Shown here in pieces: positions 5,765-55,179 of a stretch of DNA of 64,000 nucleotides. The notes beneath the pieces are model-generated. The model ran no database searches. It was not told where the DNA came from and worked only from the letters and a program-made list of their open reading frames with translations. Made by a program: the position numbers and the translations under genes. Source of the stretch: Patescibacteria group bacterium (GTDB lineage: Bacteria > Patescibacteriota > Microgenomatia > UBA10105 > UBA927); contig JBBTWJ010000005.1 of NCBI GenBank assembly GCA_038062895.1, forward strand, positions 131,715-195,714. The letters run 5' to 3'. Within the stretch, counting starts at the first letter, position 1; each line of letters begins with the position of its first letter.

Positions 5765-6947
5765 AGAGAGCGATCGTTTTTCGAAGCAACAATGCGAGGG
5801 CAAGCGGCAGGACGGGGAGGATATACAGCCAGTTTTTTGCCAGTTGAATTTCATTCCCGAACTGCAGAAAGATAAATAGTCCGATGAAACTTACGGTCCG
5901 GAATATTCCCAACACAATATCGCGTTCAAGAAGTAGGTGATATTTTTGCTGCCAACTTCCTTGGGCTTGGTCCAGCACGCCAAAGTAGACGATCGACAGT
6001 TTATTGTTAAATATCGGAACGGTGAGTCCGGAAATAATAATATACGCCCAGATCCCTAGCGGCGATTGATAAAATGCAAACACAATGATCGAGAGGGCAG
6101 ATCCAGCGACACCGATCCAATAAGCAGATGGGAACTTTGTGAGAAGCGGGATAGCATAGAGATTGGACACGATTGCAATCGTCGAAAATATCGTGAGCAC
6201 GAATCCCAGATCCGCTTCATTTTTCACTATGACGAAAAATAACACGCCCGTCACGGTGCCGAGGGCAATATCAAATAAACCCAGTACTGCATTTTGTCCC
6301 AGGATGAGTTTCCAACTGCGTGTCCGTTGATGGTCCAAGATGTGATGGTATGAAAAATCCAGTGATTCATGCGCGGGGAGTTTGCCGATGACAAAGATCG
6401 TGATGATATTGATGATGGCGACCAGAAAAAATAACAGGAGATAGCCGTTTGTAACACCGAGCGATGTTTTACCGACGGTGGTGATAATCAGTCCTCCGAT
6501 TGCCGGACCCATGGCGTTGGCAAGATTAAACACTGCCCCAGCCCACCCAAAATATGAGACCCGTCTTCCGGAATGGGCGAGAATATATTGATTGAGATTA
6601 TACGAAGCCCAAAAAAACCCACCGGAAAAACCGGAGAGAATGCCCAACGGGAAGACAAAGGCGATGCTTTGGTCTTTGAGAAAAAATAAGAGAAGATAAA
6701 ATATTGATCCGGCGACGAGACTCATTTTCATCATGGTACCGGAAGAGATATGCCGGAGTGCCCAACCGGACGCCCCATAGAAAAACGTCATGGAGGCAAA
6801 TGCCGCGATATTATAAAGCGTCGTGACCTTGAGATCTCCATGGGAAAAGAAAAAAACCGTGACGAAAATATTGGCCAGAGATCCGGCCAGGATATCTAAG
6901 CCCTGGATGAGAAGGAGCTTCCGTTCGTCGGGGGATAAATTCTTCAT
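5748..6947 (-). CDS. MFS-type transporter (12 predicted TM helices)
   Basis: Regularly spaced hydrophobic helices with Gly-rich loops typical of the major facilitator superfamily. Overlaps the epmA end by 17 bp in convergent orientation. Confidence 0.6.
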   Translation of the reverse strand: MKNLSPDERKLLLIQGLDILAGSLANIFVTVFFFSHGDLKVTTLYNIAAFASMTFFYGASGWALRHISSGTMMKMSLVAGSIFYLLLFFLKDQSIAFVFPLGILSGFSGGFFWASYNLNQYILAHSGRRVSYFGWAGAVFNLANAMGPAIGGLIITTVGKTSLGVTNGYLLLFFLVAIINIITIFVIGKLPAHESLDFSYHHILDHQRTRSWKLILGQNAVLGLFDIALGTVTGVLFFVIVKNEADLGFVLTIFSTIAIVSNLYAIPLLTKFPSAYWIGVAGSALSIIVFAFYQSPLGIWAYIIISGLTVPIFNNKLSIVYFGVLDQAQGSWQQKYHLLLERDIVLGIFRTVSFIGLFIFLQFGNEIQLAKNWLYILPVLPLALALLLRKTIALSTLKT

Positions 6948-12162: not shown

Positions 12163-12194
12163 AGACAAAATAAACCACGTGGTGTATTTTGTCA
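12163..12194. repeat. 32-bp near-palindromic direct repeat, copy 1 (AGACAAAATAAACCACGTGGTGTATTTTGTCA)
   Basis: Exact 32/32 match to 12966..12997. Core CACGTG palindrome with flanking inverted arms AAAATA/TATTTT. Confidence 0.9.
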
Positions 12195-12262: not shown

Positions 12263-12962
12263 CTAGACATCAAAGAAATCGCGGAAGCTTTGGTCGTTTT
12301 CAATCGCAGCTACGCGGAATATTCGGACGTATTTCCCGATCCCTAGATATTCACGAAGAAATATGAGTTCTTTGACGCATGGATATGCGTGAAGGTACAT
12401 ACTCTCGTGTAGGGGATAGAACCGCCAGACGCGAAGATATTCACGGAAATATGTACGAAGGTGATCCAGGGCGCGTGGTATATCATAGCTGACGAGACAC
12501 CACGTTTCGTCCCAGCGTGCGGGTTTTTCTATAGTGATTTCATCAAGCGCATATTTGAGTACGCGCCGTTTTCCGTTTTGTGTGAGCGTGATAACGTCGG
12601 CGTCACCTTCTTTGGAAATTTGTACAAGCTTTGCTTGCTCAAGGCGCGCGAGGGTGCGTTTGAGGTAGCTTAAGTTAAAGCGCTTCCATGTTGGGTCATC
12701 GTCATTATGATGAGTATTCAGAAATGGCTTGAGGACCATGGGGAGAGTGGGGAAGGCAAGCGAGGCAGCGATGAACGCTCCGGCGCCGACGAGTTTGAGC
12801 ACCAGTGCGACTTTTGCATATTTTTCTGTCCGTTCTTGGCGATCTATCTTATGAAGAAGTGATTGGCAAAGCGTTGCGATTTCTGCTTCCGTTTTTTCGG
12901 TAAGCGGCAGGTTTTCAATTTTTTGTTTAGGCTTTCTTGGACGAACTCGAAGCGAATTCATG
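12263..12962 (-). CDS. membrane-anchored protein with a PaaX-C-terminal-like domain (hypothetical)
   Basis: 'WDETWCLVSYDIP...LRxxLxxxxFYPLHESMYL' resembles the PaaX_C domain. One TM helix. Start taken at the internal Met at 12962 because the upstream part of the long ORF overlaps the repeat and looks non-coding. Confidence 0.45.
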
Positions 12963-12965
12963 GTA

Positions 12966-12997
12966 GAGACAAAATAAACCACGTGGTGTATTTTGTC
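12966..12997. repeat. 32-bp near-palindromic direct repeat, copy 2
   Basis: Identical to 12163..12194. Lies immediately upstream of the PaaX-like gene start. Confidence 0.9.
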
Positions 12998-13092
12998 AAG
13001 ATTACTGAGATTACAGAAATGGGGAGATAAGATCCAGCACATTGGCGCCCGGCCATTGATTTTCAGAGAGAGTGAGAGTACTCTAGGTGTTG

Positions 13093-21049: not shown

Positions 21050-21286
21050 AAGTACGGGAGGTACGAAAAGTACGAGATGTACGGGAGGAACAGGGAAAGA
21101 GACAAGCGGATTATTATCCACAATATATGAATAGTTCTGAATCATTGAACACAATTAATACATATATCGCTGGTCACTCGTTTTTTGTCTCCTGTCGCTT
21201 GCATTAAACCCCGTACTTTTTCCTCAATTCTTGGCGGCCGAGGCTAGCAAAAATGATTGACTGTATTTGATCTAGAAATGACTAGT

Positions 21287-24608: not shown

Positions 24609-25193
24609 ATGGCAATTTATACCCGTACCGGCGATACCGGATCAACGTCCCTCTTTGGCGGTAAGCGCGTCCTCAAGTGCGAGGAGCTTGTGGAGGTCTA
24701 TGGGTCGCTTGATGAGTTAAATTCGTGGATTGGGCATGTCGCATCACTCTTTCCTTCTCCGGATGTCAAACAATTTCTTCAGACCATACAATCCGATGTC
24801 TTTACGATCGGCAGCACGCTTGCAGGGTGGAAGAATGGAGATTTGACTGCACTGGAAAGCCGGGTAAAGGAAATGGAAGCGCGGATCGATGCCATGGAGG
24901 AGAGTTTACCTCCAATCCGGAATTTCATCCTGCCGGGTGGCGCGGAGTTGGCCGCTCACACACATATTACGCGCAGTATTTGCCGGAGAGTGGAGAGGCA
25001 ACTTGTTTCATTGAAGGTACGAGAAGTACAGGAAGTACAGGAAGTACAGGAGGTACGGGAGGGAGATGTTGACGTGATGATTAAGTACCTCAACCGGCTT
25101 TCGGACTTGTTTTTTATGCTCGCGCGGTTTATAAACAAGCAGGAGAATGTGGAAGAAGTGATTTGGAATGGAAACCATTCCAAATCATCCTGA
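24609..25193 (+). CDS. pduO: ATP:cob(I)alamin adenosyltransferase, PduO type
   Basis: 'MAIYTRTGDTGSTSLFGG' N-terminal signature of PduO-type adenosyltransferases. Contains an in-frame 9-bp tandem repeat encoding VREVQEVQEVQEVRE. Confidence 0.8.
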   Translation: MAIYTRTGDTGSTSLFGGKRVLKCEELVEVYGSLDELNSWIGHVASLFPSPDVKQFLQTIQSDVFTIGSTLAGWKNGDLTALESRVKEMEARIDAMEESLPPIRNFILPGGAELAAHTHITRSICRRVERQLVSLKVREVQEVQEVQEVREGDVDVMIKYLNRLSDLFFMLARFINKQENVEEVIWNGNHSKSS

Positions 25194-28200: not shown

Positions 28201-30591
28201 TTGAGACTTTCAAACTTTACGGACTTTAAGACTCATTTTATGCCATTACAATTTGCCGATCTTACCTATCAGTTGGAAATATTTGCCGTAAGCCTCTTAT
28301 TATTGGTGGTGTTTTTGACGGGCCTCGTGATCCTGGGCTATATAGCATTTCTTTTTTGGAAGTACCGAAACCGTGAAGAGCGAAGCCTCGAGTATGTGCT
28401 CATGCAGATAGCGGTCCCGAGGGAAAACGAGACGAAGATTGATGCGGCAGAGCAGTTGTTTGCAAGTTTACATTCCATTTCTCATGGTGGATTTTGGTCC
28501 TTCCTCAAGCCCCAGGACCATATTTCTTTTGAAATAGTCGCCAAGCGTGAAGATATCCGATTCTACGTATGTGTGCCCCGGCGGCTCATGGATTATGTGG
28601 AGAAGCAAATACACGGAAGCTATAGCGGGGCAGACATCAAGGAGGTAGACGAATATTCTATATTCTCCCAGACCGGCAAGGTCGCATTTGCAGCGCTCAA
28701 ACTGAAAAGTTCTAACTACTTTCCAATGCGGATATATCGGGATTTGCCGGTGGATCCACTCTCTTCCATCACCTCGGTGTTGGCTAAAATGCAGGAAGGG
28801 GAGGGGGCTGCCGTACAAATCCTCATCCAACCGGCGGACAGTAAGTGGCGAAAACTCGGCCGGGGATACATATCGAAAGTAAAAAAAGATGAGGCCAATC
28901 CCGAAAAAGCGAACTTCAAAGTGGACCCCAAAAGTCTCGAGGCAATTGAAGGCAAAGTGAGTAAACCCGGATTTAACACAGTTGTCCGATTGGTCGTATC
29001 ATCGCCGAGCGAGGAATCGGCAAAACAGCATTTGGAAAATTTGATCGGATCCTTCGAGCAGTTTGCCAGTGATCATAATAATTTTACGAAAGTGAAGCTT
29101 CCCATGAAACAGCTCTTTATGGTGGACTTCATTTACCGGTATTTTCCGGTGATCAACCTGCCACTTCTCCCGCAGCACAGCGTGCTTTCTACAGACGAGC
29201 TGGCGACTATTTTTCATTTACCGAATAAATCTATCGAGACCGCACACATCTTTTGGCTCAACGCCAAGCGCGCACCGGCTCCGTCCCAGATACCATCCTC
29301 GGGATTATTTATGGGCATCTCGCGCTACCGAGGGCAGGACCGAAGAATATATATTGGCGAAGATGACCGAAGACGGCACATGTACATCATCGGCAAAACA
29401 GGAACGGGTAAATCACAACTCCTGGAGGAGATGGTCATGCAGGATATCCATGCCGGTCATGGACTGGCCGTCGTGGATCCCCACGGAGATCTGGTCGAGA
29501 ACATTCTCGCCCGTATGCCCCCCGGTAGGGCGGAGGACGTCATCTACTTTGATCCGGGAGACAGCGAGCGGCCGATTGGCTTGAATCTCTTGGAAGCCAA
29601 GACCGAACTGCAAAAACACTTTGTGGCAACGTCTATCGTCGGGCTCATGTATAAGCTCTTTGACCCTATGAAAACCGGTATCATCGGGCCCCGGTTTGAA
29701 CATGCGATCCGAAACGCCATGCTTACCGTCATGGAAGCCATCCCCAACGGCACCTTCATCGAGGTTGTCCAGACGCTGCAACGCCCGGACTTCGTGCAGT
29801 CACTTCTGCCACTCGTCAAAGATCCGATTGTACGGCGGTATTGGACGGATCAGATTGCCCAAACCGCGGACTTTCATAAATCGGAGGTCCTGGACTACAT
29901 CGTCTCGAAATTCGGGCGGTTCATCACCAACAAGCTCATCCGCAATATCATCGGACAATCCTATTCCAGTTTTGAATTCCGCAAAGTCATGGATGAGGGG
30001 AAGATACTCCTCGTCAATCTCGCAAAGGGGAAGCTGGGGGAGGAGAACAGCAATTTTCTGGGACTCATCCTTGTTCCCCGGATTTTGATTTCTGCTATGA
30101 GTCGGCAGGAAATACCGGAGGAGAAACGGCGGGACTTTTATCTGTACGTGGATGAGTTTCAAAATTTCGCGACCCCCGACTTTGCCCAGATCCTGTCCGA
30201 AGCCCGGAAATACCGTCTCAACCTCATCGTTGCCAACCAGTTCATCGGGCAGATGGAGGAGGAAGTGAAAAATGCGGTATTTGGAAACGTAGGTACCGTG
30301 GCTTCGTTCCGTATCGGTGTCACCGATGCCAACTACCTGCAGCATGAATTTCAGCCGACTTTCAATGAAAGTGATCTCATCAACATTGATCGCTTCAACG
30401 CGTACGTCAAAACGACCGTTCACAACGAGCCGGTCAAGCCGTTTAGCATGGATTTGACCAAAGACATGAGTAAGGTCACGGCGTCCAAAAATCCGGCTGT
30501 GGCCGCGGCCATTGTCCAGCTCTCGCGCCTCAAGTATGGCAGGAGCAAAGAGCTCGTGGAAGCCGAGATAGCCCAGAGAGCAAGACTATAA
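28201..30591 (+). CDS. membrane-anchored coupling-protein-like ATPase (VirD4/TraG/TraD/TrwB family, FtsK-HerA superfamily)
   Basis: N-terminal TM helices. Walker A 'IIGKTGTGKSQ' and Walker B 'FYLYVDEFQNFA'. About 800 aa, as for type IV coupling proteins. Confidence 0.6.
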   Translation: MRLSNFTDFKTHFMPLQFADLTYQLEIFAVSLLLLVVFLTGLVILGYIAFLFWKYRNREERSLEYVLMQIAVPRENETKIDAAEQLFASLHSISHGGFWSFLKPQDHISFEIVAKREDIRFYVCVPRRLMDYVEKQIHGSYSGADIKEVDEYSIFSQTGKVAFAALKLKSSNYFPMRIYRDLPVDPLSSITSVLAKMQEGEGAAVQILIQPADSKWRKLGRGYISKVKKDEANPEKANFKVDPKSLEAIEGKVSKPGFNTVVRLVVSSPSEESAKQHLENLIGSFEQFASDHNNFTKVKLPMKQLFMVDFIYRYFPVINLPLLPQHSVLSTDELATIFHLPNKSIETAHIFWLNAKRAPAPSQIPSSGLFMGISRYRGQDRRIYIGEDDRRRHMYIIGKTGTGKSQLLEEMVMQDIHAGHGLAVVDPHGDLVENILARMPPGRAEDVIYFDPGDSERPIGLNLLEAKTELQKHFVATSIVGLMYKLFDPMKTGIIGPRFEHAIRNAMLTVMEAIPNGTFIEVVQTLQRPDFVQSLLPLVKDPIVRRYWTDQIAQTADFHKSEVLDYIVSKFGRFITNKLIRNIIGQSYSSFEFRKVMDEGKILLVNLAKGKLGEENSNFLGLILVPRILISAMSRQEIPEEKRRDFYLYVDEFQNFATPDFAQILSEARKYRLNLIVANQFIGQMEEEVKNAVFGNVGTVASFRIGVTDANYLQHEFQPTFNESDLINIDRFNAYVKTTVHNEPVKPFSMDLTKDMSKVTASKNPAVAAAIVQLSRLKYGRSKELVEAEIAQRARL

Positions 30592-30889
30592 AAAAGTACG
30601 GGAAGTATGAAAGGTACGGGAAGTACGGGAGGGTAGAGCAGAAAATCCTATAGGCTTGACTTCTTCTTCTTCTTCTTCTTCTAAACTCCATTGATACGTA
30701 GGCCAATAAAGAGCGTCACAAAGCGATGTTTATTTTGTTGGTTTGCTATTTTTGTTGCTCATTGACAGGTTGCGGAAAACATTCAGTTGTCTTCTATTCA
30801 ATACAATGGATAGCATCTTTAGCATGATTATTCGTGCTTGAAATGCTATCCATAGGTATGGATAAATATAAAATAAAAGGAGAAAGAAA

Positions 30890-37847: not shown

Positions 37848-38065
37848 GATAAGAAAGGATTTTCCGCAGATTGTAAATGTGCAAGATGATCAAAATGTAA
37901 ACCACCAAAAAAGCGCTAGCTACCAAGCGCTTGTTGATGCGTTTACCTAACGAGGGATTTTACAGAGAGAGAGAGTTAAAGTCAAGCCTATAGTGGGTAA
38001 AGTGTTTATTTAAGGCCTATTTATGGTATTGACAGGGTCTATAAATATGCTAGTATGGTACCTAT

Positions 38066-38335
38066 ATGCAATCAACATCGTCCACCATCAAGCTCAACGT
38101 GTCATCTGGGATACTGGCTAACGCTGATGCAGAGGCACGCCGGATTGGTATATCCCTTCAGGATTTTATCCGCATGCTCATGGCTACCTACTTTGCCAAC
38201 ACTCAATCTGTCCGGGCAGTTTCTCGGGATCAGTCCTTGTACGAGCAGGCACGCAATGAAATACAAAGCGGATCATTTGTCCGTGTAAAGAATAAAAGGG
38301 AACTCAACGAATATTTAAACAAACTCAACTCCTAA
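38066..38335 (+). CDS. type II antitoxin, DinJ/RelB-like (ribbon-helix-helix)
   Basis: Small protein immediately upstream of a RelE/ParE toxin. N-terminal 'TIKLNVSSGILANADAEARRIGIS' RHH-like. Confidence 0.5.
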   Translation: MQSTSSTIKLNVSSGILANADAEARRIGISLQDFIRMLMATYFANTQSVRAVSRDQSLYEQARNEIQSGSFVRVKNKRELNEYLNKLNS

Positions 38336-38339
38336 CGGC

Positions 38340-38597
38340 ATGGAACTGCGATTCACTCCGTCATTTGAACGGGAATACAAAAAAATTGTCAGGGGAAATG
38401 AGACGCTTCAGAAGAAGGTCAGAAAGCAGCTTACCATTCTTGAGAAAAATGCAAATTATCCGTCACTTCGTCTGCATAAGCTTGGTTCGAGTAAGTACTG
38501 GTCAATTTCTATAGACACAAGTATCCGGGTACTTATCATTCTTGAAAAACAGTGGATTTACGTCTACCACATTGGGAAACATGAGGATGTGTATTAG
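38340..38597 (+). CDS. RelE/ParE-family toxin
   Basis: 'FEREYKKI...KLGSSKYWSISIDTSIRVLIIL...IYVYHIGKHEDVY' matches the RelE/ParE fold pattern. 4 nt after the antitoxin. Confidence 0.65.
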   Translation: MELRFTPSFEREYKKIVRGNETLQKKVRKQLTILEKNANYPSLRLHKLGSSKYWSISIDTSIRVLIILEKQWIYVYHIGKHEDVY

Positions 38598-42249: not shown

Positions 42250-42528
42250 ATGCACTACGTCTATATTCTCCAATCGTTAATAAAATCCAATTGGCTTTAT
42301 AAAGGGTCTACTTCTGATCTCAAGCGCAGGGTGGCAGAGCACAATGCAGGTAAAAACTTCTCTACCGCTCCATACACTCCATTGAAACTAATTTATTACG
42401 AAGCCTATCTTCTTAAAGAAGATGCCGAAGCGAGAGAAAAATATCTCAAAACCAGCATGGGAATGAGAGTGATTAAAAAACAACTTAGTAACTATCTTAA
42501 ATCTTACGCCATTAGTAGTAGGGGATGA
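42250..42528 (+). CDS. GIY-YIG nuclease-domain small protein, paralog 2
   Basis: 'HYVYILQS...LYKGSTSDLKRRVAEHN' motif. About 60% identical to paralog 1 (18459). Confidence 0.65.
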   Translation: MHYVYILQSLIKSNWLYKGSTSDLKRRVAEHNAGKNFSTAPYTPLKLIYYEAYLLKEDAEAREKYLKTSMGMRVIKKQLSNYLKSYAISSRG

Positions 42529-42904
42529 TGGGAGCGTGAGTTATACTGGTGGTATGGCAAGAAAGAATCCCTCGACTATGCTCGGGACTAAAGAGAAGCG
42601 GTGGACGAGGAGAAGGCTTATCGCGCTTGGGATTCCGGCGGTCTTGATCCCGGGACTCCTGATTGCCATGGCGCTCGGCTGGAATCCGGTGAAACTGGAA
42701 AACGTGAAGGGCTCAAGGAAAATCCCGAAGGATGTAAAAAAGGGAAGCTCATCAATGAGGAAATGGTGCGAAAGCGGCTGGCTTCCGCCGAAACGTATAA
42801 AGAGCGTGGGGAGCTCAAGTATGAAGGGAGAATAGGAAGATAGGGAGATGGGAAGAGAGGGAGATGGGGGTAATTGGAGAATGCAAGAAAAGAAGAAGGA
42901 AAGA

Positions 42905-43291
42905 CTACCGCCTCGTGCAGTGGGAGCGTAGCCAGGAGGCGATTTCCGGCAGGTCCGGTTTTTTGTTGTCTACGTGGATCATAAAGTCCGCTCCATCGCG
43001 CGGTGTCGCCTTGAGGCGATACCCATTTAACCAGAGAAATCGTTTGGTTGCGGCCCATGCCGTTCTTTTATTTCCATCAGTGAACGGGTGATTCATGCAA
43101 AGTGATTGTAAAAGAGCCGCAGCCATGGAAAAAAGCGTGGGGTAGAGAGATTGTCCGTTAAATGTCGCTTTACATCGCTCCACTGCGGAATGAAGGAGTG
43201 AGAAATCGCGGACACCAGCCTTGGTGCCTGCACGATGGATGATCGCTTCGTGGATCGCATACGCCTCTTCAATATCGAGAAACTGTGTCAT
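42905..43291 (-). CDS. doc: Doc (death-on-curing) Fic-fold toxin
   Basis: Doc motif 'HPFTDGNKRTA'. Confidence 0.75.
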   Translation of the reverse strand: MTQFLDIEEAYAIHEAIIHRAGTKAGVRDFSLLHSAVERCKATFNGQSLYPTLFSMAAALLQSLCMNHPFTDGNKRTAWAATKRFLWLNGYRLKATPRDGADFMIHVDNKKPDLPEIASWLRSHCTRR

Positions 43292-43300
43292 GGGTATGGA

Positions 43301-43549
43301 TTAAGCGAGTTGGTCCAGGAGCGCACCGTCTTCCTTGAGAAACCCGTCAAGCCACGCTTGAAATTCTTTCTGGGAGCGGGTGGATGAGGTAGATGATTTG
43401 GCAATCGGACGAACAAAAACACCCTCTGCCTGAGGCACATAATCGATTGTCATTTTTTGTCCGCGGCGCCACCGGGCCTCCTGCATGATGGGAGCGGGGA
43501 GAATGACCGCATTGCTGTTGCCGAGCTGGGAAATGGTTGTTGTCTGCAT
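43301..43549 (-). CDS. AbrB/MazE (SpoVT-AbrB) type antitoxin
   Basis: 'ISQLGNSNAVILPAPIMQEA' swapped-hairpin motif. 9 bp upstream of doc on the same strand. Confidence 0.6.
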   Translation of the reverse strand: MQTTTISQLGNSNAVILPAPIMQEARWRRGQKMTIDYVPQAEGVFVRPIAKSSTSSTRSQKEFQAWLDGFLKEDGALLDQLA

Positions 43550-45165: not shown

Positions 45166-47160
45166 ATGAATCTGAAAGATACTATCGAAAAAATACTGAA
45201 AGAGAAAAAGGTTGACTATAAATTTATCCCATTGCCGGAGGATTTACCGTTTGATGTGCCATCACATGCAAAGTTTCACAACATTTCCCTTGCGCAGGCG
45301 ATGGTAACGATACTCTACAGAACGGAGAAGGGGATAGTCGCGGCGGTCAGGTGCGCGGATACACAAATTGATCAGGAGAAACTAAAAAAACTTGCAGGGG
45401 TCAAGACGCTTGCGTTTGCTTCAAAAGAAGAGTTGAAAACTCTCGGTACAGAAGCTGGACTTGTGCCATACTTGGGGCTCACTATTCCGTATTTTATCGA
45501 TGCAAAAGTTTTGACGATAGGAAAAGCCTATGGGATCGGAGGCGCACGAACACTTGGCATGGTGATGAATGCAGCTGATATGCCAAAGGTGAACGGAGGA
45601 GTGGTGGGCGAGTTTGCATACCACGAGACAAAACGAGATATAAAAGGGAAACGATTATTGTCCGGTATCACGCCCAGCGGTGATGGGAGTCTGCATATCG
45701 GCAATTATCTGGGGGCCGTGCGGCAATTTATCGAGCTTGCGCGGACCAATGAAACGTTTCTTATGGTTGCCGACCTCCATGCGCTCACGACGGTGCAGGA
45801 TAAGGCGCGGCTATCAGGAAATATCGAGGCGTTGGTCCTCAACGAGCTTGCACTCTTGCGCGGGTTCATGACGGTGCAAGAGTTTGCAAAGATTATCTTT
45901 TTCCGTCAGTCGGATGTTGCCTGCCACACCGAGCTTCAGTCAATTCTCAATAACGTGACTCCCTTGGGCCTCATCAAGCGCGCGCACGCATACAAAGATA
46001 AATTGCAAAAAGACGTGATGGAGGATGATATCAACATGGGGCTTTTTTCCTATCCGATGCTCATGGCGGCGGACATTCTTCTCTATAAACCAGACCTTGT
46101 GCCGGTAGGGAAAGACCAGAAGCAGCATGTGGAGATTACGAGAGATATTGCGGGCAGGTTTAACAAGACGTTTAAGACAGTAAGACAGAAAGACGGTAAG
46201 ACAGGAGTATTCAAACTTCCAGAACCATACATACCAGAGGAGGTGGCGGTGGTACTGGGGACTGACGGAAAACGGAAGATGAGTAAGAGCTTGGGAAACA
46301 TAATCAGCATCTTTGATGATGAGGAAAATATAAGGAAACAAGTGATGAGTACGTACACCGACCCGACCAGAATTCACGCCAATGACCCCGGACACACCGA
46401 GGGGAACATGGTCTTCACGTACCTCGACTTTTTTGGTGAATTGGAAAAAAACAACGAGTTGAAGGAAGCCTATAAGAAAGGTCAAGTGGCTGATATTGAG
46501 GTAAAAAATTATTTATACGAATCGCTGCTCAAATACTTTGCAAATGCGCGCCAAACGTATAAAGAATTGGCCGCACATCCCGAGACTGTCAAAAAAATAC
46601 TAGAGGATGGGGCAGAAAAAGCCAGGAGTGTTGCCAGGGATACGATGGGTGAGGTAAGGGAGGCGGTGGGACTTATAAATAAATACAGCATACAGATAGC
46701 AGATAACAGAAAACAGATAGCAGACAACAGAGAACAGAAAACAGAGAATAGAGATCAGATAAAACAAAATACAACTGGGGTGATTACCATAGAGGAATTT
46801 GGGAGGGTGGAGCTGCGGGTGGGGAAAGTGGTCGAGGCGACGAACAAAGAGGGGAGCGAGAAGTTGATACGGTTGGTGGTGGAATTCGGACCCTCCTTCG
46901 CCAAGGCTACGGCGGGCAAGCAAGCGGAAACACGTGTAATTTTTACTGGCGTGCGGGGGTATGGGTATTCACCTGCAGATTTTCTCAATAAACAATTTTT
47001 CTTTATCACCAATCTCGCGCCACGCAAAATGATGGATGAAGAATCTCAAGGAATGATTTTAGCGGTAGATGGAGACGAGTTACCGTTTGGTGAACATGGC
47101 CCCAAAAAGCCTGTATTTGTTTCCGCTGAAGGATTGCCCGTGGGGGCGAAGATACGGTGA
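45166..47160 (+). CDS. trpS: tryptophanyl-tRNA synthetase with an N-terminal YbaK/ProX-like editing-type domain and a C-terminal Trbp111/EMAP-like tRNA-binding domain
   Basis: HIGH region 'SGITPSGDGSLHIGNYLGA' and 'KMSKS'. N-terminal about 150 aa with YbaK-like 'KTLAF...GLVPYLGLTIP...GIGGART'. C-terminal OB fold 'VELRVGKVVEATNKEGSEKLIRLVVEFGP'. Low-complexity linker encoded by an (ACAGARAA)n repeat. Confidence 0.8.
   Translation: MNLKDTIEKILKEKKVDYKFIPLPEDLPFDVPSHAKFHNISLAQAMVTILYRTEKGIVAAVRCADTQIDQEKLKKLAGVKTLAFASKEELKTLGTEAGLVPYLGLTIPYFIDAKVLTIGKAYGIGGARTLGMVMNAADMPKVNGGVVGEFAYHETKRDIKGKRLLSGITPSGDGSLHIGNYLGAVRQFIELARTNETFLMVADLHALTTVQDKARLSGNIEALVLNELALLRGFMTVQEFAKIIFFRQSDVACHTELQSILNNVTPLGLIKRAHAYKDKLQKDVMEDDINMGLFSYPMLMAADILLYKPDLVPVGKDQKQHVEITRDIAGRFNKTFKTVRQKDGKTGVFKLPEPYIPEEVAVVLGTDGKRKMSKSLGNIISIFDDEENIRKQVMSTYTDPTRIHANDPGHTEGNMVFTYLDFFGELEKNNELKEAYKKGQVADIEVKNYLYESLLKYFANARQTYKELAAHPETVKKILEDGAEKARSVARDTMGEVREAVGLINKYSIQIADNRKQIADNREQKTENRDQIKQNTTGVITIEEFGRVELRVGKVVEATNKEGSEKLIRLVVEFGPSFAKATAGKQAETRVIFTGVRGYGYSPADFLNKQFFFITNLAPRKMMDEESQGMILAVDGDELPFGEHGPKKPVFVSAEGLPVGAKIR
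47125..47160. repeat. 36-bp direct repeat, copy 1 (the trpS 3' terminus itself)
   Basis: gctgaaggattgcccgtgggggcgaagatacggtga. A diverged copy at 47905..47940 also reads xEGxPVGAKIR-stop. Confidence 0.8.
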
Positions 47161-47198
47161 ATCTTGACATTTTTAAATACATCTAGTACTATATAGTC

Positions 47199-47450
47199 AT
47201 GTTTAGTACCAAAGTATATACCCCAGAACAAGTAGCCGAAATGCTGCAGCTTTCCAAAAATACCGTGTACGGGCTCATCAACCGCGGCGAGATCATTGCA
47301 AAGAAGATCGGCAATGTGTACCGGATCCCGGCACGCTCCATCGCGTTTGTGTTTAACGGTTTGGATGCGGATTTATCCGATGCGCAGGCAGCCGATGAAC
47401 AAAATTTTTCCCGTGTGCAACAAGCTATCAATGCGGTCCGCGCTCCCTAA
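47199..47450 (+). CDS. excisionase-family HTH DNA-binding protein (probable antitoxin of the downstream PIN toxin)
   Basis: 'TPEQVAEMLQLSKNTVYGLINRGEIIAKKIGNVYRI' excisionase/MerR-like HTH. Stop directly abuts the PIN ATG. Confidence 0.55.
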   Translation: MFSTKVYTPEQVAEMLQLSKNTVYGLINRGEIIAKKIGNVYRIPARSIAFVFNGLDADLSDAQAADEQNFSRVQQAINAVRAP

Positions 47451-47882
47451 ATGTATATCATGCCGATCCGTGTATTTGTTGATTCCGACGTCATTATTTC
47501 TTCCCTCATATCCAAAACAGGAGCTGCCTATCTGCTGATGCAGGACACACGTATCAATCGGTTCATCTCCGATGTGTCTCATGTCGAACTCAAGAGGGTG
47601 GCAGATGTATTACATCTCTCACAGAAAGATTTGCAGAAGCTTGTAGATGCTCAGTGTCGCGTTGTGAAGATCGGGGAGTACCCGGGTGAACGCAAACGTA
47701 TGGCGGAATATACACGCGACTTGCATGACACACATATCGTATTGGGAGCGAAACTCGCAAAAGCAAAATTTCTGGTTACGTATAATCTGAAGCATTATCT
47801 GGTTGAAAAAATACGGGAGGATTTGGGAATCATCGTCCTGACCCCGGCATTCCTTTTGCAATATTTAAGGAGTTTGAATTAA
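47451..47882 (+). CDS. PIN-domain protein (VapC-like toxin)
   Basis: 'VFVDSDVIISSL' PIN N-terminal Asp motif and later conserved acidic residues. Confidence 0.6.
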   Translation: MYIMPIRVFVDSDVIISSLISKTGAAYLLMQDTRINRFISDVSHVELKRVADVLHLSQKDLQKLVDAQCRVVKIGEYPGERKRMAEYTRDLHDTHIVLGAKLAKAKFLVTYNLKHYLVEKIREDLGIIVLTPAFLLQYLRSLN

Positions 47883-47904
47883 ATTAGACTGCTTTTTTGT
47901 TTTC

Positions 47905-47940
47905 ACTGAAGGGATGCCTGTTGGGGCGAAGATACGGTGA
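47905..47940. repeat. 36-bp direct repeat, copy 2 (diverged trpS 3'-end duplicate)
   Basis: cactgaagggatgcctgttggggcgaagatacggtga. About 30/36 identical to copy 1, with differences at codon third positions or conservative. Confidence 0.8.
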
Positions 47941-48037
47941 AGAAGAGGTTTAAAGCTAATCCACCCGTCGGGTTGACGCTGATCTACCACCGAAGGGATG
48001 TGTATCGACTCCTGAGGAGTTGTTGGGGTAAAGGGCC

Positions 48038-49462
48038 CTATTGATGAAAAAACTCGAGTTCTTCGCGTGTTGGCAACGCCTCAAAAGAACCAAGACGGGT
48101 CACCGCAAATGCGCCTGCGCGATTGCCAAGCTGCACGGCACGTTTGAGATCGTTCGTTGCGAGATATTCTGCGACGAATGCAGCACGATAGGCATCTCCC
48201 GCCGCCGTTTCGTCAATCGCAGGGACTTTCATCCCGGGGAAATAGACCGGATCAGTATCTCCCTTTTCAAGTAGTACAGAGCCAAGATGCCCCAGCGTGA
48301 CGATGACGGTATTTGCGCCTTTTGATTGAAGTTTTTTTGCCGCTTCACCCGCGCTTTTTTCATCTGTAACGGTAATTCCAGTCATGCCAGTCGCTTCGAA
48401 TTCGTTAGCCGAGAGTATGTCGATCATGGGAAACAGATGTTCGGATAATGGCCGAACCTGCGGAGCCGCGTCACAAAAAATTGGAATATTGCGCGTATGG
48501 ATTTCTTCAATGGCATAGGAAACAATGTCCGGCAGTGTTTCGAGGGTCGTGTAGAAGCAATCGATATGTATGCTTTTATTGTCAATAGCAGAGAGGAGGT
48601 CCGAGATTGTTTTTTTATTGATACGGATGTTGGCATCTTCATTGACGATAATCGTGTTTTTCCCTTGTGCATCGACATTGACCATGACGGTGCCGGTGGG
48701 GATAAAGCTATCTGTATCAACGTATTGTGTTTGAATTCCTTCATTTTTAAATAATGCGATAACCGATTCGCCGAACGTGTCATTGCCAGTTTTCCCCAGC
48801 ATGTAGACTTGTTGCCCGAGACGCGCCAGTCCGACCGCTGCGTTGGTCGCTTTGCCACCGGGGGCGAGTTTGAGTCCTGAACTGATGACGACGTCATCCT
48901 GTTTGGGTATGAAGGGGACCTTTGTGACAAGATCGATGTTGATAGAACCTAAGACGGCAATATTTTTTGAAGCAGTCGTCTGTCTGGAAGAAGTTTTTTT
49001 CTGCGTGGTGAGCGCACTATTTCGTTTTGAGCGGATAGTGTCGCTTACCCCTTTGAGAAATTTAAGAACCAAGGGTTCGAGATTTTTTTCCGTATACAAT
49101 TCCCCCTGGAATGCTTCATGACGGATGAGATCGCCATAATCTTTTTTCTGCGACAGGCAAAGAACAGGCTTTTTATAGATAATAGCAAGGGTGGCTTCGT
49201 GCCCGACCCGGAAATCCTCGAAAGACGCTTCGATGATCACGGCGTCTGCGTTGGCTATCCCTTGGCGGACAAATTCATAATGGACGCGGTGCGCATCGCC
49301 GAGCTTTTTGACGTTTTCATCACGAAACGTATCAAAATAGTCGCGGGATTTTTCGGGACTGACGACGGTCGCGCCGGTAGACTCGATGGTTTTGACGATG
49401 CGGTCGATATAGGGTTGATATATCTTTTTTCCGTCGTAGGGAGATGTGAAGAAGATTTTCAT
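48038..49462 (-). CDS. fusion protein: N-terminal nucleoside 2-deoxyribosyltransferase-like domain plus C-terminal ribokinase/PfkB-family sugar kinase
   Basis: C-terminal PfkB motifs 'GGKATNAA' and 'DETAAGDAY'. N-terminal about 150 aa Rossmann-like domain resembling NDT/YtoQ. Confidence 0.65.
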   Translation of the reverse strand: MKIFFTSPYDGKKIYQPYIDRIVKTIESTGATVVSPEKSRDYFDTFRDENVKKLGDAHRVHYEFVRQGIANADAVIIEASFEDFRVGHEATLAIIYKKPVLCLSQKKDYGDLIRHEAFQGELYTEKNLEPLVLKFLKGVSDTIRSKRNSALTTQKKTSSRQTTASKNIAVLGSINIDLVTKVPFIPKQDDVVISSGLKLAPGGKATNAAVGLARLGQQVYMLGKTGNDTFGESVIALFKNEGIQTQYVDTDSFIPTGTVMVNVDAQGKNTIIVNEDANIRINKKTISDLLSAIDNKSIHIDCFYTTLETLPDIVSYAIEEIHTRNIPIFCDAAPQVRPLSEHLFPMIDILSANEFEATGMTGITVTDEKSAGEAAKKLQSKGANTVIVTLGHLGSVLLEKGDTDPVYFPGMKVPAIDETAAGDAYRAAFVAEYLATNDLKRAVQLGNRAGAFAVTRLGSFEALPTREELEFFHQ

Positions 49463-49684: not shown

Positions 49685-51619
49685 ATGGCGGAGAAACATC
49701 CAATTGTCAAAAAAAACGGCTCGCCTCAATTCGGCGGAGCGAGGAAAAATGGGAATGGGAACGGCAAGCACGGGAAAAAGGTGTGGGAGTTTGGATTTCA
49801 GTTTAACGTCAAAAATATTTTCATTGGGCTTTTCATTGCCTTCATCGTATTTAGCCTCTTGGGAAGCCTCGGGGATAAAGTGAGCACCCTTGTCGAAAAG
49901 CCGCTCTCAACGGTCATCACCGACGTGAAAGAAGGGAAAATAGACAAGATTGAGATAGAAGAAAGCCGGCTCACCGTGAGCTATAAAGACGGTACAAAAT
50001 TTATCTCCCATAAAGAACCGCAAGAATCACTCCTAAAAGTCTTTGAAGGCGCCGGGGTTGACCCCAAAGCCGTCGAGATAAAAGTAAAAGACTTGTCTCC
50101 GGGCCAACTATGGATGGGGATTATCTCCAACGTGTTGCCACTCGTCCTCACCGTCGTATTTTTTCTTTTCCTTTTCCGTCAGGCACGGGGAGCGCAGGAC
50201 AATATTTTTTCCTTCGGACAAAGTAAGTCGCGGATATTCGCCAAAGATTTACCCAAAGTAACGTTTGCCGATGTGGCAGGGGTGGATGAAGCCAAGAAGG
50301 AACTCGAAGAGGTCGTCGACTTTCTCAAAAACCCCGCCAAATACAAAGCGTTGGGGGCGCGGACTCCCAAGGGGGTTATATTAGTTGGTCCATCCGGAAC
50401 GGGAAAGACGCTTCTTGCCAAAGCCATGGCTGGCGAGGCACATACCGCGTTTTACAGTGTGGCCGGAAGCGAGTTTATGGAAATGCTTGTGGGGATTGGA
50501 GCCGCGCGCGTCCGTGACCTTTTTGCCCAGGCCAAGAAAAATGCGCCGTCGATCATCTTCATCGATGAGATCGACGCAATCGGCAGGATGCGATCGGTCG
50601 GGCTTATGGGCGGGCATGATGAACGCGAGCAGACCCTCAACCAAATCCTGGTGGAAATGGATGGATTTGAGCCCAATACCGCGGTGCTCATTGTGGCGGC
50701 CACCAACCGCGGGGATTTACTCGACCCGGCACTTCTTCGGCCCGGACGGTTTGACCGGCGGGTGGTCCTGGATCTTCCGGACATGGCGGGACGCAAAGAC
50801 ATCCTCGCCATCCACGCCAAGGGCAAACCCTTCGCGGTAACGGTGGAGTGGGACAAAGTATCCAAGCGTACGGTAGGCTTCTCGGGCGCAGATATGGAGA
50901 ACATGCTCAATGAAGCGGCGATCCTGGCCGCCCGCGAGGATAAAAAAGAGATCGACATGAAAGACATCGAGGAGGCGGCAACAAAAGTAAAATTGGGGCC
51001 GGAGAAGAAACGGCTGCAGTCAGACTTGGATCGCAAAATGACGGCGTACCACGAGGCTGGTCACGCGGTCGTCAATTATTACTCTCCCAATCTCGATCCC
51101 GTGCACCGCGTGTCCATCGTCTCGCGTGGGATGGCTTTGGGATACACCATGGCGCCTCCGGAGAAGGACCGGCTGCATGAGACCAAGTCCCGGCTTATCG
51201 ACGAAATCGCCATGACGATGGGGGGACGGGCTGCCGAAAAGTTAATATTTAATGAAATGACCAGTGGGGCAGCCAACGACATCGACCAAGCGACCAGAAT
51301 CGCCCGGTACATGGTGATGGAGTTTGGGATGAGCGACCTGGGGCCTATCAATTTCGGCCCGCAGATGGACATAACCGAGTGGGGCAAGCAGTACATGGAG
51401 CAAAATACCGTGTCCCAGGACATGCAGGGCAAGATCGACGTGGAAGTGAAGAAGCTCCTGGATGAAGGGTATAGGAAAGCCGCCGAGCTTCTGAAAAAGT
51501 ATAAAAAGAAGCTTGATCTCGTTGCCGAAGAGTTAATCAAAAAAGAGACGCTGGAAGGAGAAGAATTCCAAGTAGTCATGGGTGGGCTTAAGCACCGAAG
51601 TAGCACGATGAGCACTTGA
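49685..51619 (+). CDS. ftsH: ATP-dependent zinc metalloprotease FtsH
   Basis: Two N-terminal TM helices. AAA+ Walker A 'GPSGTGKT', Walker B 'IIFIDEID', SRH. Zinc-binding 'HEAGHA'. Confidence 0.9.
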
Positions 51620-53620: not shown

Positions 53621-53739
53621 CAAGCGAGCGGGCAATAAAAAAGCCGGTCTTATCGACATCACTCTCCGCTTTTACGGCGAGGGGTCGCTTCGAATCCGAC
53701 TATGAAAATAGTATACCATGATAGTAGTAATAGTCAATT

Positions 53740-53898
53740 ATGAAAATCGCATTGGTACATGATTTTTTACGGGAGTACGGGGGAGCGGAAAGGGTTGTGG
53801 AAACCTTGCCTCGACACAACGCTTACTTACTCGCAAGGGCTACGTCCTTGCCTCGCAAGAGCGCGTGTACGGGGCTGCGGTTTCATAACGTTATATGA
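53740..53898 (+). pseudogene. upstream ORF that duplicates the first 23 codons of the downstream glycosyltransferase, then diverges; its stop overlaps the GT start (ATGA)
   Basis: MKIALVHDFLREYGGAERVVETL is identical in both copies, but 13/23 codons differ synonymously. Lies 86 bp upstream of the GT gene. Confidence 0.45.
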
Positions 53899-55076
53899 AG
53901 ATAGCTTTAGTTCATGACTTTCTTAGAGAATACGGTGGTGCTGAAAGGGTTGTCGAAACCTTGCATGAAATGTGGCCGGAGGCGCCGCTTTATACGTCGT
54001 TTGTGGATTGGGGAAATTTGGGGGATCAGGGGTATAGGTTCAAAAATTGGGATATACGGACGAGCTGGGTGCAGCAGTTTTGGTTCATCAAAAAATTTAT
54101 TTCGCCCCTCCGGTTTCTCGCTCCTTGGATCTGGGGGAGCTTTGATCTCTCCGGGTATGACGTGGTCATTTCAAGTTCGGGTTGGTTTATTTGTCGTGGC
54201 GTTCGAATGGGAGATCCTTCGACTCGCTCCGCTCGCTCAGGACGTGCTCTGCACGTTTGCTACATCCATCATCCTCCGAGGAATCTGTATGGGTATGCGA
54301 CGGGCAGTGATCTGCAGAAGTACTGGATCGTGCGCGTGTATGCGGCAATCGTGAACTTCTTTCTCCGGCACTACGACTATGAAACGGCGCAGAAGGTGGA
54401 CTACTTCATTGCTAATTCTCAGGAGACGAAACGGAGGGTGTTGAAATTCTATAGACGTGATGCTGCCGTTATCTATCCTCCAATTGAATTATCCAATTAT
54501 CCAATTATCCAATTATCCAATAATCCAATAAAAATTCATAAGAAATACTATTTATCTGTTGGGCGGCTCACGTACAGTAAGCGGGTGGATATCGCAATTG
54601 CGGCGTGCAAAAAACTTGGATTGCCGCTCATGATCGTCGGAACGGGCAAAGAAGAGGAATCGTTGAAAAAACTAGCTTCGCAAGGCCTGGCCTTGCGAAG
54701 CTGTGGTATTGAGTTTTTGGGGAGTGTAAACGACGAGGAACTGTCTCGGCTCTACGCGGGGGCCAAGGCGCTTATCTTTTGTGCGCTGGATGAGGACTTC
54801 GGGATGGTACCGGTAGAGGCCATGGCCCATGGGACGCCCGTCATCGCTCTGGCTCAAGGTGGAGTGGTGGAGACGGTGGTGGACGGGAAAACTGGCATTC
54901 TTTTTCACGAGGTGACAGTGGAGAGCTTGATAAAAGCGTTGGGGAGATTTAGGGGATTAGGGGGATTTGGGGAAATGGGGGAAAATTGTATAAAACAAGC
55001 CGAGAAGTTTGGCAAAGAGCGGTTTAAGAAGGAATTGTTGGCGTTTATAAATACCCAGAGGTTTAAAGCTAATTAA
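53895..55076 (+). CDS. glycosyltransferase family 4 (GT-B fold)
   Basis: C-terminal 'EDFGMVPVEAMAHGTPVIA' EX7E-type motif. N-terminal GT4 domain. In-frame insertions encoded by the 8-bp repeat and by the 29-bp palindrome. Confidence 0.8.
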   Translation: MKIALVHDFLREYGGAERVVETLHEMWPEAPLYTSFVDWGNLGDQGYRFKNWDIRTSWVQQFWFIKKFISPLRFLAPWIWGSFDLSGYDVVISSSGWFICRGVRMGDPSTRSARSGRALHVCYIHHPPRNLYGYATGSDLQKYWIVRVYAAIVNFFLRHYDYETAQKVDYFIANSQETKRRVLKFYRRDAAVIYPPIELSNYPIIQLSNNPIKIHKKYYLSVGRLTYSKRVDIAIAACKKLGLPLMIVGTGKEEESLKKLASQGLALRSCGIEFLGSVNDEELSRLYAGAKALIFCALDEDFGMVPVEAMAHGTPVIALAQGGVVETVVDGKTGILFHEVTVESLIKALGRFRGLGGFGEMGENCIKQAEKFGKERFKKELLAFINTQRFKAN

Positions 55077-55179
55077 CCCGTCGGGTTGATTTGCTCCCGC
55101 TAGATTTGCATTTTTCCCCAGATAGGTGTAAAAAACGTTTCCAGGCCATTTTTTGTCAGATTGACCTGCGTAGCAGCAG

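Follow-up and report, generated by a model that had tools for sequence, protein, structure and literature searches.

A second copy of the trpS 3' end lies downstream of a small HTH/PIN cassette in the window, the whole 64,000-nt stretch of DNA analysed here. This copy (copy 2) is probably a scar that recombination with foreign DNA left at a recurrent hotspot, by sequential displacement, and not the footprint of an integrase. In the mechanism that we propose, a DNA fragment from a related bacterium, in which the 3' part of trpS precedes a toxin-antitoxin cassette, would recombine into the locus. Its left end would enter by a homologous crossover inside the conserved trpS, which serves as the homology anchor of the hotspot, and its right end would be closed by an illegitimate joint, via a microhomology of a few bases, shortly upstream of the resident stop codon. 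Because the incoming DNA recombines in trpS and joins upstream of the resident stop, it would supply a working gene end and orphan the last bases of the resident one. The old trpS 3' end would most likely have been displaced downstream and left as the 46-nt copy 2. Repeated rounds would turn the trpS-ftsH junction of Gottesmanbacteria into stratified toxin-antitoxin cassettes separated by orphan gene ends, and an addictive cassette would select against its own loss by short-repeat recombination.

Table 1 Features of the trpS-ftsH region (positions in the window)
Feature	Position	Strand	Evidence and remarks
trpS	45166..47160	+	Pfam tRNA_edit 1e-10, tRNA-synt_1b 2e-57, tRNA_bind 4e-12
Copy 1	47116..47161	+	Functional trpS 3' terminus, FVSAEGLPVGAKIR-stop, 'L-type' allele
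Sigma-70-like cassette promoter, TTGACA-17-TACTAT	47164..47192	+	Promoter scan 10/12; begins 3 nt past the trpS stop
8-bp palindrome TAGTACTA	47184-47191		Overlaps the -10; candidate operator
Excisionase-family HTH gene, 83 aa	47199..47450	+	Pfam HTH_17 2.3e-13; NCBIfam TIGR01764 'excise' 37.2 bits, cutoff 28.8
PIN_3-domain gene	47451..47882	+	Pfam PIN_3 30.9 bits, cutoff 27
Copy 2	47896..47941	+	Displaced non-coding trpS-terminus remnant, FVFTEGMPVGAKIR-stop, clade-consensus 'M-type' allele
Motif M GAAGAGGTTTAAAGCTAATCCACCCGTCGGGTTGA with 13-nt palindrome AACCCGTCGGGTT	47942..47976	+	
Older degenerate layer (tentative)	47990..48045	+	PIN-end fragment and half trpS-terminus remnant (…CCGAAGGGATG…TGAGGAGTTGTTGGGGTAAAGGG…)
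PfkB-family kinase fusion	48038..49462	-	Pfam PfkB 9.5e-59; further occupant of the trpS-ftsH gap
ftsH	49685..51619	+	Conserved right-hand neighbour; abuts trpS directly in empty-site relatives

An earlier note on this DNA had described a 36-bp repeat of the trpS end (47125-47160 and 47905-47940) with exactly two genes between the copies. The repeat is real (31/36 identical), and its true extent is 46 nt, with 40/46 positions identical between two direct copies spaced by 780 nt. The 734-nt insert between them indeed holds exactly two ORFs, assigned by Pfam and NCBIfam to an excisionase-family HTH protein and a PIN_3 protein. When the flanking 10 kb were shuffled 300 times, the 46-mer reached at most 28/46 (mean 23.8), and the rest of the real window gives no more than 26-27/46; these scores are far under 40/46, which excludes chance similarity. 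In addition, at least 10 independent assemblies of one population (L001-L012) show a structure that is identical down to the base, which rules out an assembly artefact. An empty site was sought among these same-strain contigs, and all of them carry the cassette. The host, from Hainich groundwater, belongs to Candidatus Gottesmanbacteria (CPR).

The L-type terminus of copy 1 also adjoins cassettes in L013, L044, L055 and L056. Copy 2 is considered non-coding because its frame differs from that of the PIN gene. The 3' 19 nt are identical between both copies; in the window as in L033, the copy pairs are identical in their 3' halves and every difference falls in the 5' halves (p≈0.03 for the window, by our own calculation). 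Copy 2 and ~60 flanking nt are 100% identical to a remnant in L032, the neighbouring sequence being different. Orthologous remnants lie 13-16 nt past the PIN stop in L040 and L045, where they have decayed through a 2-nt deletion and through substitutions, respectively, and none is present in L044, L049, L051 or L052. The PIN-to-remnant junction is common to the window, L032, L040 and L045, and the right joint of the window is located within 47883-47895. A second copy of motif M forms the 3' end of a GT gene (55056-55089), and in relatives this motif recurs behind remnants and cassettes. The older degenerate layer, a tentative assignment, aligns with the second relic layer of L040 (the alignment is weak, with no detection by an nhmmer profile). 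The PfkB kinase fusion is absent in empty-site relatives.

Judged from its sequence, the cassette appears to be an intact type II toxin-antitoxin operon: it has a promoter of its own, an HTH protein as repressor/antitoxin and a PIN protein as RNase toxin. The genes have the layout of such systems, being small, co-oriented and 0-9 nt apart, with the DNA-binding one first. The true start of the PIN gene is probably the ATG at 47460, which gives 140 aa as in homologues. The product, for which 455 homologues were found, has a PIN fold with conserved acidic active-site residues: all of 16 homologues compared share D8, E43, D87 and D90, and the subfamily has N at the fourth position. The HTH protein is presumed to be both antitoxin and autorepressor, and the PIN_3 protein is presumed to be the toxin RNase; we infer that the cassette works as a toxin-antitoxin system. 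Because the ATG stands only 6 nt after the -10, the cassette mRNA is probably leaderless or nearly so. The same layout, a trpS stop followed by TTGACA, is found in L032, L040, L044, L049 and L055. Like VapBC-like systems, the cassette consists of two small co-oriented genes, a DNA-binding partner and then a PIN toxin with conserved acidic residues, under its own promoter with a palindrome. Unlike them, it has a predicted antitoxin of the HTH_17 excisionase type, not of the AbrB, RHH or Phd fold, and a toxin of the PIN_3 subfamily with Asn at the fourth acidic position.

The HTH/PIN pair is found at the same position in nine lineages, with PIN identity as low as 64%; the insertion is therefore old, not recent. 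Plasmid and phage collections contained no copy of the cassette. The metagenome scan gave matches when made with the TrpS C-terminal alignment, and none when queried with the PIN protein. The same note had also foreseen that relatives might carry these genes here without repeats, which would make the arrangement ancient and the similarity coincidental. Half of this holds: the two genes have been here for a long time, but coincidence does not explain the repeat.

We compared 97 related trpS-ftsH loci, counting a site as empty when at most 200 nt separate the trpS stop from the start of ftsH. As the earlier note had expected, the gap is empty in many relatives, with trpS abutting ftsH in 30/97 loci, and 0/30 of these carry an extra terminus copy. 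The gap is occupied in 35/97 loci, mostly by type II toxin-antitoxin cassettes; an extra terminus repeat is present in 8/35 of the occupied sites, and the other 27/35 have none. In about a dozen lineages, one to three extra trpS-terminus copies are stacked between cassettes, all of them downstream of trpS, on the same strand and within occupied gaps. L040 and L045 have four terminus copies each and L055 has three, the order in L045 being trpS, hairpin H, half-terminus, MazE/PIN, terminus, HTH/PIN, terminus. The left ends of the remnants vary (-46, -42, -40, -32, -30, -23 and -22), and every one of the ~12 remnants is at most 48 nt long. H and the L069 hairpin, small hairpin inserts unrelated to each other, have a common boundary at -22/-23; hairpin H, which folds well (-18.6 kcal/mol, z = -3.2), is missing from the window.

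Other gene ends are duplicated as well. In L032, a PIN fragment comprising 162 nt from the 3' end accompanies the terminus remnant, a PIN-end remnant also occurs in L040, and in the window the 5' terminus of the GT gene is duplicated (53739-53809 and 53894-53964, 71 nt at 79%). Since PIN 3' ends and a GT 5' end are duplicated alike, the process is not specific to the trpS terminus. The parallels drawn earlier with guaA and GT thus hold in part: the GT duplication is real, yet of a 5' terminus, and for guaA none was found by tblastn with the last 30 residues. Searches for integrases, recombinases and transposases gave zero matches among the 20 largest unannotated ORFs of occupied gaps, and no recombinase is annotated in the gaps of loci carrying precomputed Pfam.

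The anchor gene, trpS, encodes a fusion of a YbaK-type tRNA_edit domain, a class I TrpRS, a low-complexity linker and a Trbp111-type tRNA_bind domain. Its identity profile against relatives is mosaic, which points to recombination. One near-isogenic pair, the occupied L056 and the empty L059, is particularly informative. The two are 95-100% identical over trpS -1190 to -800, and identity drops to 33-88% (mostly 59-83%) across the last ~800 nt of the gene. From about -470 to -110, L056 is closest (80-95%) to L013, a lineage carrying the same Phd/PIN_3 cassette after trpS. The remnant and ftsH flank of L056 correspond to what in L059 are the genuine terminus and its flank (94% over 798 nt downstream), L056 having kept the last 30 nt of the resident gene and the flank towards ftsH. 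At the L056 junction (…TTTTTGAAA joined to GGTATGCC…), only GAA is shared, a 3-nt microhomology, and the PIN ORF is joined in frame to trpS position -30. The same PIN in L013 retains its own end, with no duplication. In addition, the upstream terminus of L056 resembles termini in other lineages with that cassette. The donor brought ~800 nt of trpS together with the cassette, and the functional upstream terminus came with the incoming DNA. This bears out the part of the earlier note in which the trpS terminus was replaced, the downstream copy being the displaced end. Overall, the foreign tract and the microhomology joint fit homology-anchored illegitimate recombination ("sequential displacement").

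The event in the window is too old for a near-isogenic empty partner, and its mechanism is therefore extrapolated from L056/L059 and from the heterogeneity of the junctions. It presumably took the same route as in L056, with copy 2 as the resident end and copy 1 as the incoming one. DNA would have entered by uptake or transformation; natural competence of these organisms is our assumption, from general knowledge of CPR genomes. The expected traits of sequential displacement are found at the locus, namely an anchor with a one-sided homologous crossover (the switch inside trpS in L056; the mosaic trpS), a microhomology joint on the other side (L056) and stacked orphan remnants (L040, L045, L055 and L032). 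Three observations count against it: random illegitimate joints should sometimes leave remnants longer than the 48 nt seen at most, the -22/-23 boundary is common to two unrelated hairpin inserts, and the copy pairs of the window and L033 agree in their 3' halves, a pattern to which a crossover or conversion point inside the repeat might also lead. We attribute the missing long remnants to the instability of long direct repeats (survivorship); alternatively, a preferred break or joint site may account for both the remnant ceiling and the shared boundary.

Sequential displacement has been proposed for T6SS effector-immunity arrays of Vibrio cholerae and for orphan Rhs/CDI 3' ends (Kirchberger et al. 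2017, PMC5361080). Homology-facilitated illegitimate recombination is described, in work cited there (references within PMC5361080), as experimentally established in transformable bacteria. The trpS-ftsH locus shares with these arrays a conserved upstream anchor gene, downstream displacement by incoming modules, stacked orphan 3' ends or modules, and a cargo of toxin plus protector with no dedicated recombinase. On the other hand, the anchor here is a housekeeping aminoacyl-tRNA synthetase gene, a role that the toxin gene itself plays in those arrays; very short non-coding gene ends (22-46 nt), instead of immunity genes, are left as orphans; and the cargo is of type II toxin-antitoxin nature, in an uncultivated CPR host. 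The toxin-antitoxin acquisition literature (PMC13617665) reports no terminus duplications.

The first alternative, which we regard as unlikely, is that the cassette went in at staggered breaks and the resident 46 nt were duplicated so as to flank it, the copies diverging later. Insertion with long target duplication was reportedly described by Nobusato in 2000 for restriction-modification cassettes. Criteria for it were given by Furuta et al. 2010 (PMC2853133), with cases that include 46-bp repeats overlapping gene 3' ends. The 46-nt repeat, the 734-nt insert and the 30 empty loci with single-copy termini agree with these operational criteria. Indeed, both kinds of insertion bring an addiction-type cassette (an addiction module below 20 kb) with no mobility genes and leave direct repeats of more than 30 bp over a gene 3' end that is single-copy in empty-site relatives, and the identical 3' 19 nt of the window copies also speak for this alternative. 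The cargo here is a toxin-antitoxin pair, however, and in L056/L059 the upstream repeat, instead of copying the resident end, is an allele of foreign origin that is continuous with ~800 nt of equally foreign trpS. Moreover, the flanking copies in L045 and L049 are only ~65-74% identical (our own count), both with an intact frame, so that different alleles fit better than decay of a duplicate.

Integrase islands and CIMEs occupy the 3' ends of tRNA or protein genes, e.g. guaA, rplL and fda. The trpS insertions resemble them in their gene-3'-end location, in the regeneration of this end by incoming DNA, in their flanking direct repeats and in the possibility of tandem accretion. Hence the trpS terminus could be an att site for integrase-less units, akin to CIMEs or integron cassettes, with a gene-end-mimicking att and a recombinase acting in trans, a reading to which we give a low probability. 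It would account for arrays of alternating termini and cassettes (term-cassette-term-cassette-term) in a single orientation, for the lack of any remnant above 48 nt, for the boundary shared by hairpin H and the L069 hairpin, for an antitoxin from the excisionase HTH family and for the identical 3' halves of the copy pairs in the window and L033. Yet no cis recombinase is present among the gap ORFs tested or annotated, the crossover is not fixed (left ends from -22 to -46 and one in-frame PIN::trpS fusion, hence variable repeat boundaries), and the foreign tract of L056 extends far beyond the repeat, taking in ~800 nt of trpS upstream of it. In addition, a repeat is lacking at most insertions (27/35 occupied sites), duplication also affects PIN and GT ends, and one Phd/PIN_3 cassette occurs both with a duplication (L056) and without (L013). 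For these reasons, site-specific integration of a discrete element, as the earlier note had interpreted the repeat, is not supported.

A broader version of the same idea would make the trpS-ftsH gap an integron-like platform with its integrase in trans, catching promoter-bearing toxin-antitoxin cassettes and small hairpin elements in ~1-Mb CPR genomes, where the orphan termini would serve for recombination between cassettes and motif M would be another site of this kind. We consider this very unlikely; it keeps some standing because of the shared -22/-23 boundary, the 48-nt ceiling and the identical 3' halves. Finally, it is hardly credible that copy 2 is a functional element under selection (a terminator, a regulatory RNA or a protein-binding site) or a chance similarity: copy 2 and motif M are 100% conserved between the window and L032 amid different neighbouring sequence, but chance is excluded by the shuffles, Rfam has no match for the window region or the H-motif region, the fold of 47883-47980 (copy 2 and M) is ordinary (z = -1.0), as is that of M alone, and the orthologous remnants are decayed or absent.

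Some narrower candidates were rejected. A genuine integron cassette array was set aside, there being no integrase among the gap ORFs tested and the inter-cassette repeats being trpS coding ends without attC-like symmetry. For XerCD/dif-type (IMEX) integration, the repeat has no dif-like dyad, as judged by eye. The idea that the repeat is kept because the trpS end overlaps the ftsH promoter was dropped, since the apparent ftsH promoter at empty sites is an extended -10 (TGnTATACT) that lies past the stop.

The trpS locus extends the sequential-displacement pattern of T6SS, Rhs and CDI loci to a housekeeping anchor, with ordinary type II toxin-antitoxin cassettes as the cargo. The case also calls for caution, as duplicated gene ends around a small cassette are not in themselves evidence of an integrase-type mobile element. 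The hotspot, located between the essential genes trpS and ftsH, forms a readable stack of orphan gene ends and provides sequence-level evidence on how tiny uncultivated CPR genomes gain accessory genes. They appear to do so by recombination with DNA of relatives, using a housekeeping gene as anchor and an illegitimate joint to close the event.

The 3' terminus of trpS recurs downstream of the cassette as a 46-nt direct repeat (40/46 positions identical, spacing 780 nt). The duplication described in the earlier note is thus real and longer than the 36 nt given there: the top match in the shuffle control (300x, flanking 10 kb) was 28/46, and the rest of the window reaches only 26-27/46. Copy 1 comprises the last 15 codons and stop of a 664-aa TrpRS fusion (tRNA_edit, tRNA-synt_1b and tRNA_bind domains). 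Copy 2, outside any gene, spells FVFTEGMPVGAKIR-stop. The copies enclose exactly two genes, as also noted earlier, first an 83-aa protein with an HTH_17/TIGR01764 ‘excise’ domain, then a PIN_3 protein whose acidic residues D8, E43, D87 and D90 are invariant across homologues. A TTGACA-17-TACTAT promoter, located by sequence scan, begins 3 nt past the trpS stop. Apart from the less common fold of its antitoxin, the cassette is a putative VapBC-type module of ordinary appearance. This structure recurs unchanged in at least 10 independent assemblies from the window's population, a Candidatus Gottesmanbacteria (CPR/Patescibacteria) of Hainich groundwater well H41 according to exact-protein look-ups and a genome scan.

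We compared 97 related loci (L-numbers), each containing the trpS end. Empty sites, sought in relatives as the earlier note had suggested, were found at 30 of them (ftsH start <200 nt from the trpS stop); 35 are occupied, with ftsH further off, and for the remaining 32 the available sequence shows no ftsH. Type II toxin-antitoxin pairs predominate among the occupants (Phd/ParE-RelE, RelB/YafQ, Phd/PIN_3, MazE/PIN, HTH_17/PIN_3), alongside a few unrelated others (DUF4143 ATPase, PP2C, APH, EamA, PfkB, unknowns). The trpS-ftsH junction is therefore an accessory-gene hotspot. Further copies of the cassette were also found: nine lineages (window, L032, L040, L044, L045, L049, L051, L052, L055) have the HTH_17/PIN_3 pair, always between trpS and ftsH and with PIN identity down to 64%, while searches of known plasmids and phages yielded none. 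This shared position, together with a junction common to the window, L032, L040 and L045 (PIN stop, 13-16 nt, terminus remnant), indicates that the window's insertion is old and inherited. In other lineages, later events inserted further layers on the trpS side of the pair.

An nhmmer search of all loci, with a profile built from the final 48 nt of trpS, revealed extra termini always downstream of trpS and on the same strand, only at occupied sites or where ftsH is not seen, and in 0/30 empty sites. They are stacked between cassettes. L045 reads trpS, hairpin H, half-terminus, MazE/PIN, terminus, HTH/PIN, terminus; L032 reads trpS, orf168, HTH/PIN, Phd/RelE, RelB/YafQ, motif M, a 162-nt PIN 3' fragment, terminus, motif M. 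L040 contains four copies and a PIN-end remnant, L055 three copies, and further carriers are L033 and L034 (both Amesbacteria), L027, L044, L049, L053, L056 and L069. Remnants are at most 48 nt long, their left boundaries are scattered from -22 to -46 relative to the trpS end, and 27/35 occupied sites are repeat-free. In L044, L055 and L056, the remnant forms the in-frame end of the Phd-associated PIN_3 ORF (…ILTPQEFLKGMPVGAKIR-stop); L013 has the same cassette with its own end kept (…FLKLP-stop) and no duplication.

The pair formed by L056 (trpS, Phd/PIN_3::remnant, ftsH) and the empty L059 is the most informative. Their identity is 95-100% over trpS -1190 to -800, but only 33-88% (mostly 59-83%) in the gene's final ~800 nt, where L013 is nearest to L056 from about -470 to -110 (80-95%). 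On the other side, the L056 remnant and ftsH flank correspond to what in L059 are the genuine trpS terminus and its flank (94% over 798 nt downstream), and only GAA is common at the joint. Such a pattern is the hallmark of a fragment that entered by homologous crossover within trpS on one side and by an illegitimate, microhomology joint on the other, and matches homology-facilitated illegitimate recombination giving ‘sequential displacement’. The trpS identity profile among relatives is a mosaic, which fits frequent recombination at this gene.

For the window, we infer by analogy with this pair that copy 1 (L-type allele EGLPVGAKIR, adjoining the cassette promoter) would have come in with the cassette, and that the displaced resident end would be copy 2 (clade-consensus M-type EGMPVGAKIR). 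Among the loci examined, none is a near-isogenic empty counterpart of the window. Copy 2 and ~60 flanking nt including motif M are 100% identical in L032, where the adjacent PIN sequence differs. The orthologous remnant has lost 2 nt in L040 and has substitutions in L045, which is how an inert scar would be expected to change. Overlapping the PfkB gene stop, a PIN-end-like fragment followed by half a trpS terminus may be a second, older relic layer; it aligns with the L040 c4 layer and is too degenerate for profile search.

The earlier note's reading, integration of a cassette at a gene end, is supported in part: copy 2 is most likely a displaced trpS end, and the cassette occupies a gap that is empty in many relatives. 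Its site-specific element is not supported. A screen of the 20 largest unannotated gap ORFs gave no recombinase or transposase domain, and none is annotated in the other gaps. Together with the varying boundaries, the mostly repeat-free sites and the orphaning of other gene ends (PIN 3' ends in L032 and L040, a glycosyltransferase (GT) 5' end in the window), this speaks against a dedicated att/integrase system. An unlikely alternative, either a favoured site of breakage or joining or a recombinase encoded elsewhere and working in trans, would suit the 48-nt ceiling, the -22/-23 boundary common to two unrelated hairpin mini-inserts (H in L040, L045 and L053; a 68-nt insert in L069) and the confinement of all copy 1/copy 2 differences to the 5' half in the window and L033 (window p≈0.03, own calculation, C(27,6)/C(46,6)); long-direct-repeat instability and local gene conversion could also account for these features. 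We consider a site-specific reading of the trpS terminus very improbable; if true, it would be considerably more interesting. The window's cassette also agrees with the operational criteria for ‘insertion with long target duplication’ (Furuta 2010, PMC2853133), but the upstream copy in L056 is a foreign allele, not a duplicate.

Several motifs accompany these sites. Motif M (35 nt, GAAGAGGTTTAAAGCTAATCCACCCGTCGGGTTGA, with palindrome AACCCGTCGGGTT inside) is the GT gene 3' end in the window and the L059 orthologue, and in five lineages it also directly follows a trpS-terminus remnant or a toxin-antitoxin cassette; window/L032 homology stops at it. Candidate explanations are an orphan GT end, a terminator/REP-like element and a recombination site. 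The likeness to a GT terminus duplication, drawn earlier, is partial: the opening 71 nt of the GT gene (23 codons) have a second copy 155 nt upstream (79% identity), which has a start codon and a promoter-like sequence of its own, but this is a 5' end with no cassette between the copies. The upstream duplicate is an orphaned 5' gene end. Hairpin motif H (37 nt, GGATGTCTGGCGGAGCCAGATCTCGCTTCGCGAGACC; -18.6 kcal/mol, z = -3.2; no Rfam match) is conserved in four lineages, where it follows the trpS stop; in L040, L045 and L053 a 23-nt half-terminus comes after it. The L069 hairpin insert differs and has the same -22 boundary. TrpRS architecture is fluid in the clade: some relatives have the N-terminal YbaK-type editing domain and many lack it (matches from residue ~162), while L045 and more distant lineages encode the C-terminal Trbp111 domain in an ORF of its own. 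The window linker contains 14/21-nt tandem repeats, and that of L032 a stretch similar to the 9-nt periodic family AAGTACGGGAGGTACGAAA… (K/Y/G/R/E-rich tails), found at or just beyond the 3' ends of three large window genes. The near-palindrome AGACAAAATAAACCACGTGGTGTATTTTGTCA has two perfect 32-nt copies flanking an ORF 3' of an aldehyde-dehydrogenase-like gene, and a third at 72%; they may be operators or small-element ends. A 47-nt motif, GAGGGATTTTACAGAGAGAGAGAGTTAAAGTCAA.CCTATAGT, 89% conserved, lies 5' of a TTGACA promoter and small gene pair in the window and adjoins the RelB/YafQ cassette of the trpS gap in L013. Just upstream of the racemase-trpS pair are more small accessory/addiction-type genes (L001/L002 annotation), with calls varying between assemblies of the same population.

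Coordinates of the features in the window and in related loci
Feature	Locus	Position
Direct repeat, copy 1; copy 2	window	47116-47161; 47896-47941
Candidate relic layer	window	47990-48045
TrpRS	window	45166-47160
TrpRS	L045	1037-3750
TrpRS linker repeats	window	46685-46761
Motif M	window	47942-47976; 55056-55089
Motif M	L032	3292-3327; 3553-3588
Motif M	L040	5477-5512
Motif M	L051	4252-4287
Motif M	L055	1498-1532
Motif M	L059	12265-12298
GT gene	window	53895-55076
GT 5' duplicate; original	window	53739-53809; 53894-53964
Motif H	L017	6504-6540
Motif H	L040	4642-4678
Motif H	L045	3751-3787
Motif H	L053	6355-6391
AGACAAAATAAACCACGTGGTGTATTTTGTCA, perfect copies	window	12163-12194; 12967-12998
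AGACAAAATAAACCACGTGGTGTATTTTGTCA-like copy	window	6268-6299
Flanked ORF (minus strand)	window	~12263-12960
AAGTACGGGAGGTACGAAA-type repeats	window	21050-21098; 25006-25072; 30585-30642
GAGGGATTTTACAGAGAGAGAGAGTTAAAGTCAA.CCTATAGT	window	37952-37994
GAGGGATTTTACAGAGAGAGAGAGTTAAAGTCAA.CCTATAGT	L013	8421-8467
Small gene pair	window	38066-38597
Accessory region	window	42250-43549
GIY-YIG protein	window	42250-42528
Fic-domain protein and 82-aa partner (minus strand)	window	42905-43549

Sequential displacement was put forward to explain arrays of T6SS effector-immunity modules and orphan Rhs/CDI ends (PMC5361080). A report of the trpS-ftsH hotspot was not found in the literature searched. The architecture described here adds a new case of such displacement with gene-end orphaning. 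In contrast to those arrays, the anchor is a housekeeping aaRS gene, the hosts are CPR bacteria and the cargo consists of toxin-antitoxin operons.
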